A stretch of DNA of 64,000 nucleotides from Podarcis muralis (Eukaryota), in NCBI RefSeq assembly GCF_964188315.1, contig NC_135666.1:15438001-15502000 (forward strand), in the 5' to 3' direction. Made by a program: the position numbers and the translations under genes. Position 1 is the stretch's first letter. Every line of letters starts with the position of its first letter. The notes beneath the pieces are model-generated. The model was not told the origin of the DNA. It worked only from the letters and a program-made list of their open reading frames with translations, and made no database searches. This document shows positions 28,096 through 63,027 of this stretch, one piece after another.

Positions 28096-28415
28096 TCTGG
28101 CTTGGACTGCAAGAAGATCAAACTTCTCCATTCTCAAGGAAATCAGCTCTGAGTGCTCACTGGAAGGACAGATCATGAAGCTGAGGCTCCAATACTTTGG
28201 CCACCTCATGAGAAGAGAAGACTCCCTGGAAAAGACCCTGATGCTGGGAAAGATTGAGGGCACAAGGAGAAGGGGACAACAGAAGACGAGATGGTTGGAC
28301 ACTGTTCTTGAAGCTACGAACATGAGTTTGACCAAACTGTGGGAGGCAGTGGAAGACAGGAGTGCCTGGCATGCTCTGGTCCACGGGGTCACGAAGAGTC
28401 AGACATGACTAAACA
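28096..28415 (+). mobile_element. Bov-B (RTE-clade LINE) 3' fragment
   Basis: Encodes KLRLQYFGHLMRREDSLEKTLMLGKIEGTRRRG..RWLD, the typical Bov-B ORF C-terminus, followed by the GGGTCACGAAGAGTC..GACTAAACA tail. Confidence 0.9.
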
Positions 28416-28436
28416 AGCTATGTACCAGTAACTGGA

Positions 28437-39469: not shown

Positions 39470-40520
39470 GGCTCAGCTGTGCACGGGGGAGGCACCGCGG
39501 AAGGCGAGGGAGAAATGGCTTTTTTAAAAAAACAACAACCCACAATGTGCATTATTTTATTTTTTTGGTGCCCTTACCTTCCGATAATTCCAGCTCCAGC
39601 TCAGCCAGGCGGGCTCTCACTTCCAGCGGCAGAGGGAGGCTCTCCAGGCTGCGATCCGCCATACTCGATCCAAGGAGATCTCCTCTGGCTCTCGGCTGTG
39701 GCTCCTTCTCCTCCTTTCTCTCCCCTCGCGCTGCTGCGCGGATGTGGGTCTGGCTCTTTGTTTGCAATACACACCGAGAGAGAGAGGGACACACGCACAC
39801 ACAACACACGCAATCGAGGAGGAGGACGACGACTTGCTGGGGGGGGGGGCGGCGGAATGGAAAGGGAGGGCGGCAAATTAAAAACAAAAGCACCCAACCC
39901 TCCCCCCCGCGCGCTGGGGTGGCGGCGTCGGGGGCCCCGGGTCCTCTCCGGAGGTCTCAGCGGCGCATAAAGCGAGGAATCCACGCAGAGCCCAGCCCAG
40001 CTCAGCTCAGCTCAGGCAGGGATGAGGTGGAGGGAACGCAGAGATTTCCCCTCTCCTCCCTCGCCGCCTGCTGCTGCTGCCTTCAGTGGAGCCCCGCCAT
40101 GGCTGCTGTTGCTGCTGCTGCCGCCTCCTCCTCCTCTTCTTCTCCTTCCTCCTCCTCCTCCTCTTTCCCCCTCGCAATCCTTTCGCATGGAGCTGAGCGG
40201 GCCCGCTGCAAGCTCGCCACAGACTCACGCACAGCGCGCCAGGGCGCAGAGCTCTCTCTCCCGCTCGCCTCCCTCGCTCGCTCGCTCGCTCCACCCCGGC
40301 CGCTGCTGCTGCTGCTGCTGCGGCTGCTTTTTTCGGCGGCGGCGGCTGGAAACTGCGGAGCCGCTGCCGAAAGCCGCCGCTTCTGCTTCTGTCACCCGCG
40401 CACGTGACCCGCCTGGGCGCAGCTGTCCCCTAGAGGGAGCGCGGGAGCACCGAGCCCCTCCAGGGAAGCCCGCGCGCGCCGGCTGGCAGCTTCTTCCCGC
40501 GCGCGCCGCGGGGTCGGTTC
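39470..40520. promoter_or_regulatory. DIP2C: CpG island / DIP2C promoter and 5' UTR
   Basis: Abrupt GC and CpG enrichment (CGCGCGCG, GGCGGCGGCGG, (CTCG)n, (CTG)n) around the first coding exon, with an E-box CACGTGAC at 40401-40408. The TSS position cannot be determined from sequence. Confidence 0.85.
39578..39662 (-). CDS. DIP2C: Disco-interacting protein 2 homolog C, first coding exon (85 nt, phase-1 intron follows)
   Basis: The minus strand reads AGT-ATG-GCG (A at -3, G at +4) and translates as MADRSLESLPLPLEVRARLAELELELSE+G. This matches my recall of the vertebrate DIP2C N-terminus (MADRSLEGMALPLEVRARLAELELELSEG, start of the DMAP1-binding domain). The exon ends at a consensus donor GAAG|GTAAGG (GT at 39577-39576) and lies in a CpG island. 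Confidence 0.95.
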
Positions 40521-40569
40521 TTGTGAGGGCAGAGGGAGCGGGTGGAGAAGGAACAAACAACAACAACGA

Positions 40570-40642
40570 TTCCTCCTCACCACTATGAGCTGAATAAAGA
40601 GCATGAAATCCAAAAAACCAAAAAAAAAAAAAAAAAAAAAAA
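40570..40642 (+). mobile_element. 43-nt fragment of the same LTR family followed by a poly(A) tail (retrocopy-like)
   Basis: 40570-40612 matches 47928-47970 at 42/43 nt and includes AATAAA (40593-40598). It is followed by AAAAACC plus A23 instead of the LTR U5 sequence. Confidence 0.8.
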
Positions 40643-41213
40643 CCCACAACAGAAAAAGCCTTTAATATATATATTAGGGCAACTCCTAGGGCAGCAAGGT
40701 CCCTTCAGCCTCCCCCAATAAAATGTTTTTTATTCAATAAAATATGTTTTGTTCAACTTGGCATCCCTGGGCATAGGAGGTTCTTTCGGGCCCCCGAGGC
40801 AGCAGAAGTGGCTCGCATCCTCCTTCGGGGCAATAAAAATTCAAAATACGGTACTTTATTTTCTGCCTGTGCTAAATCAAATTTAAAAAACCCACTAGTG
40901 AGGTGTGTCACATCAGGGATAAGACCTGGTCTCATTAAAGGCCAGCAAGTGGTCAGTTATTTATTATATCCATCCAATTATTTAATAGTTTCTCGTATTT
41001 TTTCACCAAAAAGGTTGCCACTTAGGTATTATACCTTTCAAGCATCAAAATGTCTCTATAGAAATAATCAACAACACACACACACGACACAGGATCCACA
41101 GAACAGCCAGTCAAGTTCCACTCACACAGTGGGGCTTTTCCTGCCTTCCCAATGTATCCCCTGGTCCATATGTCTTCCCTGAAAAGTCACTGAGAGCATC
41201 CTCCAGAACAGAC

Positions 41214-42411: not shown

Positions 42412-42568
42412 NNNNNNNNNNNNNNNNNNNNNNNNNNNNNNNNNNNNNNNNNNNNNNNNNNNNNNNNNNNNNNNNNNNNNNNNNNNNNNNNNNNNNNNNN
42501 NNNNNNNNNNNNNNNNNNNNNNNNNNNNNNNNNNNNNNNNNNNNNNNNNNNNNNNNNNNNNNNNNNNN
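42412..42568. other. Assembly gap (157 N)
   Basis: Run of N. Confidence 0.99.
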
Positions 42569-43984: not shown

Positions 43985-44305
43985 AGTTACTGTAGAAAAG
44001 GGCTGTGGTGATCTTTGTTTTCGTGTGTGAGTGGGGTGGGTGGGTGTTTTTGAATCAGGTTAGCCATATTGATTTGAATGCTGTTGGTAGATTCTTGTCG
44101 TTGTCTTGTTGGGCTGTGTATGTGATAAAAGGGAGCCATACCGGGGTGAAGGCATCTTCTTCTATTTGTCCCCATGTCAGTTTCAGTTTATTGGTTAATT
44201 TTTCTAGTAGGGCTGTTTCCCATACTATTTGGTACCATTGGTCCATGCTTACTCCTGACAGGTCTCTCCAGTGTCTGGTTATGATGTTTCTGGTTGCAGA
44301 GAGGT
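43985..44305 (-). mobile_element. L1/Tx1 ORF2 C-terminal end plus start of the 3' UTR
   Basis: LSATRNIITRHWRDLSGVSMDQWYQIVWETALLEKLT..DAFTPVWLPFITY fits the non-mammalian L1 ORF2 terminal pattern (L.AAr..I...W......W...i.....lEkl....F...W.pf). Confidence 0.75.
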
Positions 44306-47300
44306 AGGAAGGGGCTGTTGAGGAGGCAGCAGATCTAGCCTCCAAGGAGCGTGCTACAGCTGTCACGGCCACGGTGGTAGCAGCAGAGGTTGATGCATCC
44401 CTCGGAGACCAGGACTGCTGTCCCTGTGGATCCTGCTGCACGAGGCAGACACCTTGCCTCATGAGTGGGCCGGCCCTGACAACTCACATGACACAAACAC
44501 ACACACCATTTGCCTTTCATCACTGGGGCTGATGGGAGTCCAACTACATCTGATGGGTCACAGGTTCCTTGCTTTAGCCAAATGACTCTCTTTGCACGTA
44601 GATATTGTCTACCGTCAACGACAAGGTTCTAATCAAAACCTAGAGAGAGAACCAAATCTTCACGTTGACATAACAAGGCAAAAACATCAATAGCACTTAC
44701 TCCCATGTCTGCTCTCAAATTAGAGGCAGATATGTGAAGAATGTCAGGCACTGTTCAGCACATGTATGTCTGACTTTTGTTATGATGTCAGTGACTTATG
44801 GGTGTGCTCCCATGAGCAAAACAACAGCAGCCATATGGATTTATTTATGGCTGCACTTCAGACAGTAAGCATGGGAATAAGGCTTGGGGCTATAAAAAGA
44901 AATGCTGTATATAGGGGTTCAGACAACAGCATCCATGGGATAAGATATACACATATCTTGTTCAAAATGTCTCCGCAAGGCAGCTCCTTCCTTATCTCTT
45001 TATCTTTTTTTAAGGGGGAAATTTTGAATACAATGTAAATGCAGGTAATGACCCTTTACATATTTGCCGGATTACAATTTAAGGATGCTTAGCTCTTAAG
45101 TGTTCCTTATCTTCAAAGGGTTTCACACAATAATTAGTCTTCACACCACTCTGGAAACTGTTATTATCTCTGTGCTTTGGAAGCTGGAGGCTTCAAGGAT
45201 GCAAAAGGCTTGATGGTGTTCTCAGGGCCTCCAAAGCAAACCAGCGAGTGTTTTGTAAAATGGTGCCTCCAGCTTTTAGAAGAGGCACGTACCTAAAAGG
45301 GCAGGCTCAAATGAAATTTTAAAAAGCTCTCACTGTGTTTACTGGAACCTAACACTCAAAGCCAGTGGCCAGGATCCAAAGATCTACTTGTGCATGCTGA
45401 TATGGAATTTAAAAACTCCTATTTTCTTTGCATAGCTACCTACACTGTCTAGTGCACATCATACGAGAAACTGCTTTTCTGAAACTACTGCAGTTTCAAA
45501 GTCCGATTGCCATGTGTCATGGGAAGAAGGACCTGCTGTTTGCGAAGCATAAGCCCAAAGCGCCTCACATGAAACAGTTAAACAATACTGGATCTTAGCA
45601 ACCGTATTTTACCACTAAAAAGGGCCAGGTATCATTACAGCTGCAATAAAAAACAAAAGCACACTGAGAGTAAAGTACAGAGGTTAGCCAAATACACCCT
45701 GCCACAATTTGGGCATGTGTTAGTGGAGGATTAATGTCTGAATTACTTTCTGATACTCAGGTTATAAAGGTGTGCCATCTCTTTTAGGATTGCTCTCCAT
45801 TCATTGCTTTCACCTGCTTGGTAAGCTTTTCTGTTACGGTCCAAGCATTTTGTATCCAAACAGACAACCGCAGATTATCTACTGTAAACCTTTCCCATTT
45901 TGAGCACTCAGTTGTCAAGTTGCAACCAGGAGAAATGTAATCAGTGCTTTATGTAGGTTTTTGTTGTTATTGTCACATAATCTATATTTGAGCAATGGTC
46001 TCTCCTTTTTTAAAAAAGAAAGAAAGACAGAAAGTGCCTGGTGATTAATGCCCTTTGACCCCACTTCAAAGTGGTCTAGTAGGATCCTGTCCTCAGCAGC
46101 CTCAGGTATAAACAGGATTTTAATGTCTAACCTCCTTGTTTTGTTTGCAGGCCAAAATAGTTACACTCTGGCTTACCACCCCCATGATATTCCTTTCTCG
46201 TGCGTTCCAAGGCCAGAGCCATCTGTTTAGTTAGGTCCATTACTTTTAATAGGATGGCAACAACATATATAACCACCAAGGGCAATGGAAAGTCTGTTTC
46301 CACTGAACTGGCACTGCATAGGTGATAACAGAACAGAACAAGAGGCTCTCTTCCACAGACAGAGTCAGCACGGTTGCATAAGCACAGAGTAAAACCAAGT
46401 TTCAGTTAAGACCATAACTAAAAGGGTGCTGGAATAGTCTCCAAGGTTTCTGCGTGGGCACACAGATCCCCGTCCAAAAAGGCCCCCTTGGCACACGCAA
46501 GGACCGTGTGTATCCACACTGCGCCTGAAATTCCAGCACTCCACACCGTACGACAAACCATTCAGAGGGATTCCAAGCGCAGCTTGTTATCTGGGCTTCT
46601 GTTTGGAAAATAAATGAATCAAAGAAAGGCCCTCTGCATGCGGAGGGCTAACCATGCAGCTCTCTGGATGATGTCCCAAATCTGAAATAGTATATGGTGT
46701 GTTTAGGAGCCTCATAGTAGCCTAGGAGTGATTAACTCAGGTGGGGTGCTTTGTAATGCAAAGCATTCTTGACAGGAGTGAATCGTCCCTGTGGAGTCAT
46801 AATGGCTATTATCGTCTCTATCAAAACAGAGTTGTGTATAAGGGGCCCGTGGATACTTGTTATTTCCATGGCTACCCCAGAGAAGGAAATACACCAACCT
46901 GTAAGAGATCTGTGTTTTCCTTGGACCAGGTCCTTGCACTGCGCAGTAAGAAGCTCCAGTTGGCCAAATGGATGACTGTCCCAGACAGCCCCCTGCTGGA
47001 AAAAAACAAACCACACCATCTACAGCTGCCGGATTTTTTAAATCCTTTAATCTTCCCTCCTGATGATGACGGGTGTCAGCGGCATATTTGCACCACATGC
47101 TTAAAGTGTCTTAATTGTCGTTATTTCATTCCTTGGGAACTGTAGTTCCATGAAGAAGGGGGGACAGAGGAGATGGTTAATTGGGTGCTATATAAATGCC
47201 ATAAATAAACATAAAATGAGAAACTTCAGCATCCTCACCAAACTACAAATCCTGCTGCTGCTGCTACTAGCAGGTTTGAAAGAAATGCTTAAATAAATAA

Positions 47301-47695
47301 AATGATAAAAATATGCCATCTCAAGAAGAAAGAGAGAAATGAACACTGGTAATTTCAAGCAGAGAGAAGTAAACAAGAATCATACGAGCAGACCATCCAT
47401 GCAAATCCTCCTCTGCCCCCCCCCCCCCAATACCCATATTCAATGTAGCAGGGAGAAATTCCAGTATTTTTGACGGAAGGAAAGTCATGAAAACATAACT
47501 GGCATTAACCCACTGCAAGCTTATTGGGTAGGTACGCCCCGTGACAATATACTTGTGACTGCATGTGTGCACGCATGCACACATACATATCAAGACCTGT
47601 GACTGCTAACAGAATTGCTTTAAAAGTCAGCAAAAAACTAAATAACATTGAAGGAGAAAGCCCAGCTCTGAGATAGTCACATCCACCAAGGTATC

Positions 47696-47993
47696 TGTTA
47701 TGTACTGAGTTGAATAGGATCCAAAATGCAGCAGTCTGATTGGTCCTAGAACAATAGGATTCAGAATGCAGCAGTCTGATTGGTCCACAGGAGCCACCCA
47801 ATCCAGCTCCAGGTGGAAGTGAATCCGCAACCTGATTGGCCTACAGGAGAATTCCGGAATTAGCCAATCACGTGGGGCCCATTGTGTAAATAATGTATAT
47901 AAAGCAGACATTCTGGGGGAACTTCCCTTCCTCCTCACTACTATGAGCTGAATAAAGAGCATGAAATCCACTGTCGACTCCGAGTATATTTCA
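47696..47993 (+). mobile_element. Solo LTR (298 bp; Gypsy/ERV-type retrotransposon)
   Basis: Starts TGTTA and ends TTTCA, with a perfect 5-bp TSD GTATC (47691-47695 / 47994-47998). It carries several CCAAT/ATTGG boxes, a tandem-duplicated U3 unit, CACGTG at 47869-47874, TATATAAA at 47896 and AATAAA at 47951. Confidence 0.9.
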
Positions 47994-48304
47994 GTATCAT
48001 TTATAAAATGTGAGTAATACCAATAGGTTGCCTTCTTAGAAAACAGACAGAAATGCAATAACATGTTATTGATTGAGCGCTTCATATGTTGAATTATGAT
48101 TATGCCGCTGTGGTTAATGGTTCCAGTCTTTCCATTTTAAACTGTCTTAGTAGTGTTTTAATTAGTTTATGCTGTTATTTTTGTTCAGCATCTTTAATAC
48201 ATTCCTACAGAACAAAACAGCCGATACATTAGTAGTCATATGTTTGATGCCAGTGTAGATGGCATCCTATAATGCAGGAAGCTCTGTTATATTCGTACCA
48301 CGTG

Positions 48305-48471: not shown

Positions 48472-48489
48472 TAATGCGCGAGTTGCCCA

Positions 48490-48813
48490 GAGCCAGTGTG
48501 GTGTAGTGGTTAAGAGCGGTAGTCTCGTAATCTGGGGAACCGGGTTCGCTTCCCCGCTCCTCCACATGCAGCTGCTGGGTGACCTTGGGCCAGTCACACT
48601 TCTCTGAAGTCTCTCAGCCCCACTCACCTCACAGAGTGTTTGTTGTGGGGGAGGAAGGGAAGGAGAATGTTAGCCACTTTGAGACTCCGTTGGGTAGTGA
48701 TAAAGCGGGATATCAAATCCAAACTCCTCCTCCTCCTCCTCCTCCTCCTCCTCCTCCTCCTCCTCCTCCTCCTCCTCTTCTTCTTCTTCTTCTTCTTCTT
48801 CTTCTTCTTCTTC
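48490..48813 (+). mobile_element. MIR/Ther1-derived SINE (Squam3-like) with long (CTC)n(TTC)n tail
   Basis: GAGCCAGTGTGGTGTAGTGGTTAAGAGC head, B-box-like GGGTTCGC, MIR-like core and triplet tail. Confidence 0.88.
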
Positions 48814-49552
48814 TCTGGCGCCATGAAAAATAAAGCTCCGCTAGAGAGCTTTATAAGAGCCGGGATTTACAGTATCATCATTGGAACAGAGTAAAAGGGA
48901 ACGGCAATGCATAAAAAGGCTGATCGTTTCATCATAGTTGACACTTCTCCACCCTCACGCTTTGAACTCGCTTTGTGACTCCTCTGCCAGTTCTTTTTTT
49001 CCCCCTCTCAGCTCCTCAGTTTGCATTTCGATTGACCTATTCAATGACCTTTGGAACCGTCTGCAGAAAATTGGGGGAAACGGCACTTACGGATGCTTCT
49101 TAAGAGTGCATTGTTGAGTTATTGGATATTTTATATGTGATTTTAATCCCTGAAGGATGCATCAAATAGATAGCATTTCCTATCACTTATTCGGATGAAA
49201 TTTGCACTAGGAAGGCTGGTAATGTCAATTCCAGAGGCTCCTAGGTGCTGGAGGGGGAGGAGGGGTGCTTTATTGTTGGTTTTGTCGCAGAGCCTCTGAT
49301 TTCATCTCTGTCCTTGCAGAGACATGCCTCTTCTGTTAGGAAGGGTGGGTTTGGGGACGAGGCACTGGTGACTGCTCATGCAGCCACTATAACTTTGAAG
49401 CACACCTGAAGCACAATGCTCCCCACCCATCCCAAGACTTCTAGGCACTGTCGTTTGTTAAGGGTTGCTGGGAATCACAACTCTGAGAGGAGTAAACTAC
49501 CGTGCCCAGAATTCTTTGTGGGAATTAATGTAATTTAAAGGTATAGTGTGAA

Positions 49553-57301: not shown

Positions 57302-57640
57302 GCTAGAAACTACCAACTCCAGCCATCTAGGCAAGTATTAGATGTGTTTAACAGATACATTAATTAAAATTTCCAACCTTCCCTTCAGAGCTTGTGAAGA
57401 GATATTATCATCTTTCCTGTTCTGAAAAATTGAGTTTGCTCACCCTCCCTTGTTGACTTATGCCTGAAACTTGCTTCTGAACGCCTACACCTGAAGTTCT
57501 CAAACTGTGGTCCATGTAGATCTCTGGTGGTCTGAGTTATCCATTAAAGTTCTCTGTGAAATGTTGTGGGACCATTGAAAATATGGTCACATCTATATAC
57601 CACATGCATTCATAGAACTTTTATACCTCTTTAACAGTTA

Positions 57641-57924
57641 GGAAATCAGCCCTGAGTGCTCACTGGAAGGACAGATCGTGAAGCTGAGGCTCCAATACCT
57701 CATGAGAAGAGAAGACTCCCTGGAAAAGACCCTGATGTTGGGAAAGATTGAGGGCACAAGGAGAAGGAGACGACAGAGGATGAGATGGTTGGACAGTGTT
57801 CTTGAAGCTACCAGCATGAGTTTGACCAACTGCGGGAGGCAGTGGAAGACAGGGGTGCCTGGCGTGCTCTGGTCCATGGGGTCACGAAGAGTCGGACACG
57901 ACTAAACGACTAAACAACAACAAC
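57641..57924 (+). mobile_element. Bov-B 3' fragment
   Basis: Same C-terminal peptide, with a small deletion, and a GACTAAAC(AAC)n tail. Confidence 0.9.
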
Positions 57925-58437
57925 AGCTTCCCCCTTAAAGTCATGGGAACTGGATTCTGGGAATTGTGATACTGTGAGGAGGTCTCTCAACAAACTACAT
58001 TTCCCAGTATTATTTGGGGGGAAGTCATGACTGCTAAAGTGGTGTAAGAATGCTTTAAATGTATGGCATCAGTGTGATATATAACTGGCCCTGCACTTAT
58101 TTTATTTTTAAAAAGAGAACTCCAAGGTCATTTTGATATGGCAGTTTTACTGAACAAGACAACAAGGGTCTGTGATATAGTGTGCTGGTTTGACCGTGAT
58201 GCTAACACTGAAGGGGAAATACTAAGATTTTTGGTGGGAGAGTGTGGAAGGAAAGCTATGGGCTGGTGAGGTGAGAGTTTATGATAATGATGGGCATAAG
58301 GCCCCTTTTGTATGAGCCATAGTGTTACTGTTATTATTTCCTTATTTATGGGCTCTCAGTTTAGGGTAAGGAGGCTTACATAACCATGAAATCCAATTAT
58401 TTCTTTATTTTCACACATCCTGATCTGGCTCACACAG

Positions 58438-62651: not shown

Positions 62652-62744
62652 TGTTATTACCAGGGAATTATGTGGACCAGTTGTTGCATTTAAGGTATGA
62701 GACTTCTGCGTTTCCAATACTTACCTGAGCCTAAGATTCTTAGG

Positions 62745-63027
62745 TGAGTTCTCACTGAAAGGACAGATCGTGAAGCTGAGGCTCCAATACTTTGGCCACC
62801 TCATGAGAAGAGAAGACTCCCTGGAAAAGATCCTGATGTTGGGAAAGATGGAGGGCACAAGGAGAAGGGGATGGCAGAGGACGAGATGGTTGGATAGTGT
62901 TCTCGAAGCTACCAACATGAGTTTGACCAAACTGCGGGAGGCAGTGGAAGACAGGAGTGCCTGGCGTGCTCTGGTCCATGGGGTCATGAAGAGTCGGACA
63001 CGACTAAACAACTAAACAACAACAACA
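62745..63027 (+). mobile_element. Bov-B 3' fragment
   Basis: Same peptide and (AAC)n tail. 12-bp TSD AAGATTCTTAGG / AAGATTATTAGG (62733-62744 / 63028-63039). Confidence 0.9.

Follow-up and report, generated by a model that had tools for sequence, protein, structure and literature searches.

Tailed copies of a bare LTR R region in the Podarcis muralis genome, probably made by L1 from a very short RNA

A tailed LTR fragment upstream of a DIP2-family gene

The stretch of DNA analysed here, which we call the window, is 64,000 nucleotides from Podarcis muralis (NCBI RefSeq assembly GCF_964188315.1, contig NC_135666.1, positions 15,438,001 to 15,502,000 of the forward strand). On its minus strand begins a DIP2-family gene, presumably the paralogue DIP2C. 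Some 900 bp before its start codon, on the opposite strand and at the edge of a GC-rich stretch, sits a small insert made of the R region of an LTR and an A-tail.

39578..39662, minus strand: first coding exon of the DIP2-family gene (DMAP_binding, PF06464, E 0.00076, below the curated cut-off)
40555..40567, plus strand: A/C-rich left flank, a candidate degenerate left target-site duplication (5 bp exact against the right side)
40568..40568, plus strand: extra G, absent from the LTR, likely a reverse-transcribed cap
40569..40612, plus strand: R region of a Ty3/Gypsy LTR, 44 nt, opening at the +1 A and closing at the CA that lies 14 nt past AATAAA (40593-40598)
40613..40642, plus strand: A-tail, A5-CC-A23, replacing U5 (read from the sequence and from a contig join in DNA run X1)
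40640..40650, plus strand: candidate right target-site duplication, the last 5 bp exact (read from the sequence)

The initial annotation of this DNA matched 43 nt of the insert, 40570-40612, to a solo LTR some way downstream, 47928-47970, at 42 of 43 positions. That match holds, with AATAAA at 40593 and 47951. The length does not: the insert is 44 nt and begins one base earlier, at A40569, because 52 of the 58 family copies sampled show C at -1 followed by A at +1, the nearby solo LTR carrying a private C at +1. Neither U3 nor U5 has left a remnant at the insert (alignment scores 5 and 2), and among 106 distinct R matches at the loci examined the two are missing together only here and at a second locus, L148, to which we come below. 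The insert lacks a promoter and was likely dead on arrival.

Just upstream of R stands a G that no LTR copy accounts for. None of the 58 sampled copies has G at -1, so G40568 is not LTR-encoded, and it is likely the signature of a reverse-transcribed cap; passages in two papers put the extra G at 5' junctions of full-length L1 insertions down to the cap (PMC11702581; PMC2912911). The target site is harder to read. We agree with the earlier judgement that the window copy has no clean duplication: what there is looks degenerate, with 5 bp exact (40563-40567 / 40646-40650), and its looser likeness is equalled by 3 of 20 control A-run ends and so is not above controls.

The insert is present in DNA other than the assembly's own. 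Four DNA runs, each from a different study, all yield a contig that extends from 40349 to 40591-40598, inside the insert, so the 5' junction has the read support whose lack would have told against the original reading. The join of the insert into its A-tail was also seen in one run (X1), which is possibly the assembly's source. The idea that the insert is an assembly artefact, or else what erosion left of an LTR next to a microsatellite, draws what plausibility it has from the low-complexity flanks and from the fact that no single contig in those runs covers the whole stretch; against it stand the repeated 5' junction, on which the artefact is rejected, the loss of U3 and U5, and a clean duplication at the second locus. 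We regard this account as largely refuted and the least probable of those considered here. No join skipping the insert is listed in the four runs, all under the same species label; the insert is likely fixed in the species, with the caveat that contigs show presence, not absence. Nearby, a contig from run X6 has 235 extra letters at 40873, 230 bp from the insert, likely a polymorphic insertion, and a run of N lies at 42412-42568, 1.8 kb away.

Does the insert do anything to its neighbour? Its AATAAA is the first on its strand past the GC-rich stretch, and the next 250 bp contain three more, so any part in ending antisense RNA would be redundant. Any role at the DIP2-family gene is putative.

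The donor LTR family and where its RNA begins

The nearby solo LTR shows the layout of the family from which the insert derives.

47696..47993, plus strand: solo LTR of the donor family, 298 bp, TG...CA, with a 5-bp duplication (47691-47695 / 47994-47998)
47896..47903, plus strand: TATA box, its first T 31 nt before +1 (read from the sequence)
47927..47927, plus strand: transcription start position of the family, A in most copies and C here (from tagged loose read ends and a step in plus-strand depth)
47951..47970, plus strand: AATAAA and the inferred cleavage region (the ends of three tailed copies lie 11-14 nt past the hexamer)

The motif at 47896 is TATATAAA; in 39 of 58 sampled copies it stands 31 nt from +1, and in 13 the exact motif is missing. 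Within 10-30 nt of AATAAA the LTR has a single CA. This particular solo LTR can be rejected as the specific donor: it is identical to the insert at 42 of 44 positions, differing at two bases of which one is +1, and the insert's 44-mer has 922 exact matches in the genome. A 31-mer from the 3' part of the insert matches at 1,663 places.

The family itself is a conventional one, with TG...CA LTRs, 5-bp duplications, a primer-binding site and a polypurine tract all found. There are 52 LTR-primer-site junctions in the genome, and of six stretches fetched at such junctions five have a pair of LTRs separated by about 4.5 kb, together with a polypurine tract, and 5-bp duplications are seen at four. 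In the one open frame scanned, from one of the six elements, the order is protease, reverse transcriptase, RNase H and integrase, as in Ty3/Gypsy, with the protease match below the curated cut-off; that frame gave no match to an env domain, and a gag-like frame had no Pfam match. The primer-binding site presumably matches tRNA-Ser, and we take the donor to belong to the Mag-like clade. Most sampled copies are solo LTRs: of the 44 whose two ends were both assigned, 31 sit within exact 5-bp duplications and a single one carries a primer site. R comes in two versions, distinguished by the final two bases. Among the 12 LTRs sampled that bear a primer site, 10 have a version unlike the window copy's and 1 has the window copy's R exactly, and the window copy's version looks to reside mostly in solo LTRs. 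Two odd copies may be recorded. One (L063:178-1127) is an internally deleted element in which the LTR, primer site and gag-like start are joined straight to the end of U5, within a 5-bp duplication. The other, at L089, is an LTR broken at the same CA and fused to unrelated sequence, with U3 kept and no tail; the exon just after the break is, we presume, ferlin-like.

Where does transcription of these LTRs begin? Four RNA runs were mapped to the LTR, with 6-12% of each run read; X21 and X22 are single-cell runs, X23 and X24 bulk. Loose read ends gather at 47928 (22 in X21, 17 in X22), and across 47920-47947 plus-strand depth in both single-cell runs climbs from 16-18 to 49-50 with no rise on the minus strand. 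The loose letters in X21 read as the Smart-seq3 tag, with 8 bases, four G and then the +1 A, at a consensus agreement of 0.57; in X22 agreement is 0.52 and the tag is not clear. The part of the Smart-seq3 description relevant here has the template-switch oligo ending in three G (10.1101/817924), and an unencoded extra G marks capped starts, according to a passage in PMC4534009; the X21 tag has one G more than the oligo carries. Strand invasion is an unlikely source of the tagged reads, given the pyrimidines upstream of +1. The context of 47927 is a pyrimidine-A initiator, and the base is homologous to the first base of the insert. The initial annotation had placed the cap site near 47928; the RNA start maps to 47927, and the insert begins at the mapped start site because the tagged reads start at the homologous LTR base.

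The other end of R is less directly seen. Most reads from +1 run on through U5, the depth in X21 being 48 at 47939, 38 at 47970 and 35 at 47981; some enter the primer-binding site and others arrive from the polypurine tract, so full-length elements are transcribed. An R-only RNA was seen in none of the four RNA runs, from libraries that would likely lose RNA so short, and no poly(A) loose end at 47970 appears among the rows listed. In the bulk runs the depth of one strand halves near 47962-47963, 7-8 nt before the CA, and not at 47970. The support for the 3' end of the insert as an RNA end comes from DNA copies. In X22 the majority letters of the loose ends at 47993, the right end of the LTR, contain the template-switch tag in reverse complement; antisense transcription may start at this edge, or the signal may be an artefact.

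Other tailed copies in the genome

Strict tail patterns found the window copy alone and a looser pattern added two loci, so the copy count is a lower bound. Three tailed loci are known as a result: two R-only copies, no plain truncated copy of the element's RNA, and one structure of another kind. The number of R-only loci is at least two from tail and start patterns over 1.52 Gb, in which diverged copies may be missed.

The second R-only copy (L148:1507-1550, minus strand; G000:C13 near 34171391) comes from the other subfamily and is the cleaner of the two. Its layout begins with TT and a 16-bp duplication; then come one extra base, an R of 44 nt starting on the same +1 A and a tail of 12 nt composed of A and C, after which the duplication is repeated perfectly. 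The extra base is A in the assembly. It appears to vary between samples, since a contig from run X6 that includes the 30-nt flank of L148 can be aligned to the window starting at 40567, implying C-G there, and on this sequence evidence G is probably ancestral and the assembly's A a product of CpG decay. The R-only structure arose twice independently, from two subfamilies.

The third locus (L144/L149, minus strand; G000:C9 near 57343695) has about 800 nt of an L1 3' end with its own tail, then LTR positions 68-272 and A7, the whole inside a 16-bp duplication. Its L1 part matches human ORF2p (E 6e-4), and the L1 tail fragment has no Pfam match. It reads as an L1 3' transduction ended by the poly(A) signal of this LTR. 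Part of the window, 44001-44308, matches the L1 3' end of L149 at 92%. Measured from AATAAA, the tails at the three loci start at 11, 14 and 14 nt. A distance of 11-14 nt is at the short edge of the usual cleavage range.

These loci bear on the idea that both R-only copies are 5'-truncated retrocopies of longer transcripts ending in the LTR, their breaks falling on +1 by chance. The LTR signal does end longer transcripts, as at L144/L149, and the last bases of L148's duplication resemble the end of U3. Yet the initial annotation's worry, that other poly(A)-tailed copies would have random 5' ends, is not borne out: both of the U3-less tailed copies start on the RNA-mapped base, each with one extra base, for which a rough estimate of chance is ~1e-4 to 1e-5 if breaks spread over 80-250 positions. 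We consider coincidence of this kind highly improbable.

Most other candidates from the pattern searches turned out to be something else. Of 23 starts with G before R, 22 were whole LTRs with an altered -1 base or a small deletion; two of three R ends without a following U5 were deleted or broken LTRs that retain U3; and of five starts preceded by a non-U3 pattern, four were whole LTRs, this last pattern being one that could not catch L148. Contigs join long unrelated upstream sequence to the R start at 40568 (X6; X1 record 3), and similar ones join at 40557 (X1 record 2 and X3 record 18, window 40557-40604). The two loci at which they hint are possibly further R-only copies, or diverged LTRs.

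Probable copying by L1, and rival accounts

L1 machinery acting in trans has left other traces in this genome, in copies of U6 RNA. Of 48 U6 matches 30 loci were examined, and 8 of the 30 have exact 13-19 bp duplications; the copies mostly have A-rich tails, some mixed with C like the tails described here. One continues into an L1 ORF2-like frame (E 1.6e-77); in three of five frames following U6 copies there was no Pfam match, and one (L130) gave a weak GIY-YIG match. Across L114-L143 there are many U6 retrocopies with tails and duplications, some of them fused to L1-like or other repeats. The U6 retrocopies and the U6-L1 chimera tell us that copying of short RNAs in trans by L1-clade machinery operates in this genome.

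We think it probable that the window insert and L148 are processed pseudogenes, made by L1, of a capped and polyadenylated R-only RNA. One of the family's LTRs, probably from among its many solo copies, would fire from its TATA promoter in the germ line; its RNA would be cleaved 14 nt after AATAAA, merely 44 nt from the cap; and L1 ORF2p, priming on the tail at an A-rich nick, would copy the RNA up to the cap and add a C opposite it. As befits processed pseudogenes, an A-tail follows the poly(A) signal, the copies' ends match RNA ends and the promoter is absent, and L1-clade machinery is at hand in trans. For the 7-20 bp duplication at a TT/AAAA-like site, L148 offers its 16 bp after TT and the window copy its 5 exact bp, not above controls. 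The original proposal, a LINE-made retrocopy running from the cap site to the poly(A) site of one LTR, thus gains from the mapped start, the junction and the second copy. Its free R-only RNA is a different matter, inferred and not observed, since full-length RNA, copied with a template jump, would give an insert of the same form.

That template jump is the main rival. Priming at the tail of a full-length element RNA, whose two ends are redundant, L1 would copy the 3' R, jump to the identical 5' R and run off the cap, which gives G, R and a tail with no tiny RNA at all. Full-length elements are there to be copied, as the LTR-primer-site junctions attest, and they are transcribed; the R end of L148's subfamily is the one carried by 10 of the 12 sampled primer-site-bearing LTRs; and the U6-L1 chimeras suggest that templates are switched in this genome. 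However, unjumped, 5'-truncated U3-R-tail copies should then outnumber the jumped ones, and none was found bar an L1 transduction. Nor does the window copy fit well, its R version looking mostly solo and occurring exactly in just one primer-site LTR. On balance we find the jump unlikely.

A further route starts from cDNA of the Gypsy element. Its minus-strand strong-stop product, consisting of a cap-derived G, R and U5, might be captured where an existing A-rich tract had broken, with trimming back to the CA. Capture of this kind is a feature of yeast Ty1, and our literature search on it found no paper. The route accounts for the start at +1 and the extra G, and the window copy is flanked by A/C-rich sequence on both sides with no clean duplication. 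It is nonetheless very unlikely: both R-only copies lose all of U5 at an equal distance from AATAAA and carry tails, L148 has its perfect duplication, and long A-runs are rare, with no A or T run of at least 15 in 250,365 sampled control bases.

Among known systems the closest kind is the HERV-W processed pseudogene, an LTR-element RNA copied by L1 that starts and ends at R and carries a poly(A) tail, at a TT/AAAA site with a 5-15 bp duplication, as the cited passages describe it (PMC5016936). Those pseudogenes keep R-U5, the internal region and U3-R; here there is a single 44-nt R, from a Ty3/Gypsy donor without an env domain. The R-only form is real and recurrent, and probably an L1 pseudogene of the HERV-W kind cut down to R; we found no R-only retrocopy in the open-access literature that was searched, most subscription papers lying outside it. 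Full-length L1 and SVA insertions share the extra 5' G, the tail and a duplication of ~15 bp in the sections we draw on (PMC11702581; PMC2912911), and they differ in copying their own RNA, where the template here would be a 44-nt LTR RNA in trans. The Lama2 dy-Pas allele, in which, according to part of PMC6466679, an L1 3' transduction terminates within an IAP LTR, matches L144/L149 and not the two R-only copies.

For the RNA itself the nearest likeness is foamy virus, in which, by the account consulted, a short RNA starts and is polyadenylated within the 5' LTR when suppression is incomplete, that suppression being governed by a splice donor and U1 snRNP (PMC3694450). The foamy virus transcripts were shown as RNA in cells, whereas our evidence is germ-line DNA copies. 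In one donor-family element, a simple pattern for splice donors has no match over the initial 730 bases counted from R. Occlusion of the poly(A) signal by a hairpin is unsupported, for R folds weakly over it (-4.2 kcal/mol, a figure without a shuffle control). Closeness to a promoter is usually thought to block 3' processing. The genomic evidence, twice independently, suggests that a Pol II RNA can likely receive both cap and poly(A) tail within 44 bases in a vertebrate germ line and that L1 likely copies so short an RNA right to its cap, and the R-only copies are a natural test case for 3' processing close to a promoter.

How far this extends is a matter on which we are tentative. Solo LTRs with a very short R may be complete germ-line transcription units making capped, polyadenylated 44-nt RNAs that L1 fixes repeatedly as R-only pseudogenes, a class so far overlooked, whose members across vertebrates are likely annotated by mistake as LTR scraps; we put this at a little short of an even chance. 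If it is true, each copy records the start site, cap and poly(A) site of its family at base resolution, and a screen for G, LTR piece, A-tail and duplication may map the U3/R/U5 borders of any LTR family from DNA. With so few copies the impact is limited, and any function is putative.

The initial annotation also spoke of an LTR-derived, SINE-like mini-RNA. The retrocopy stands, and the copies are like SINEs in being short, tailed and LINE-dependent. "SINE-like" itself we would drop, as there are two or three promoterless copies, with no amplification and no copy-of-copy lineage. The TATA-bearing U3 is absent, leaving no internal promoter, and ARAGORN found no tRNA gene in the window; two R-only loci from patterns over 1.52 Gb do not make an amplified family. 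ARAGORN did call a tmRNA at 48472-49069, over a repeat and a microsatellite, which is almost surely spurious.

RTE/Bov-B was considered as the mobiliser on account of the (CAA)n flank, following part of PMC6007223, and was set aside, L148's TT-preceded 16-bp duplication fitting L1. The window also holds three related repeat fragments (28137-28432, 57640-57925 and 62732-63027), two of which end in (CAA)n. All three are, we assume, RTE/Bov-B-like.
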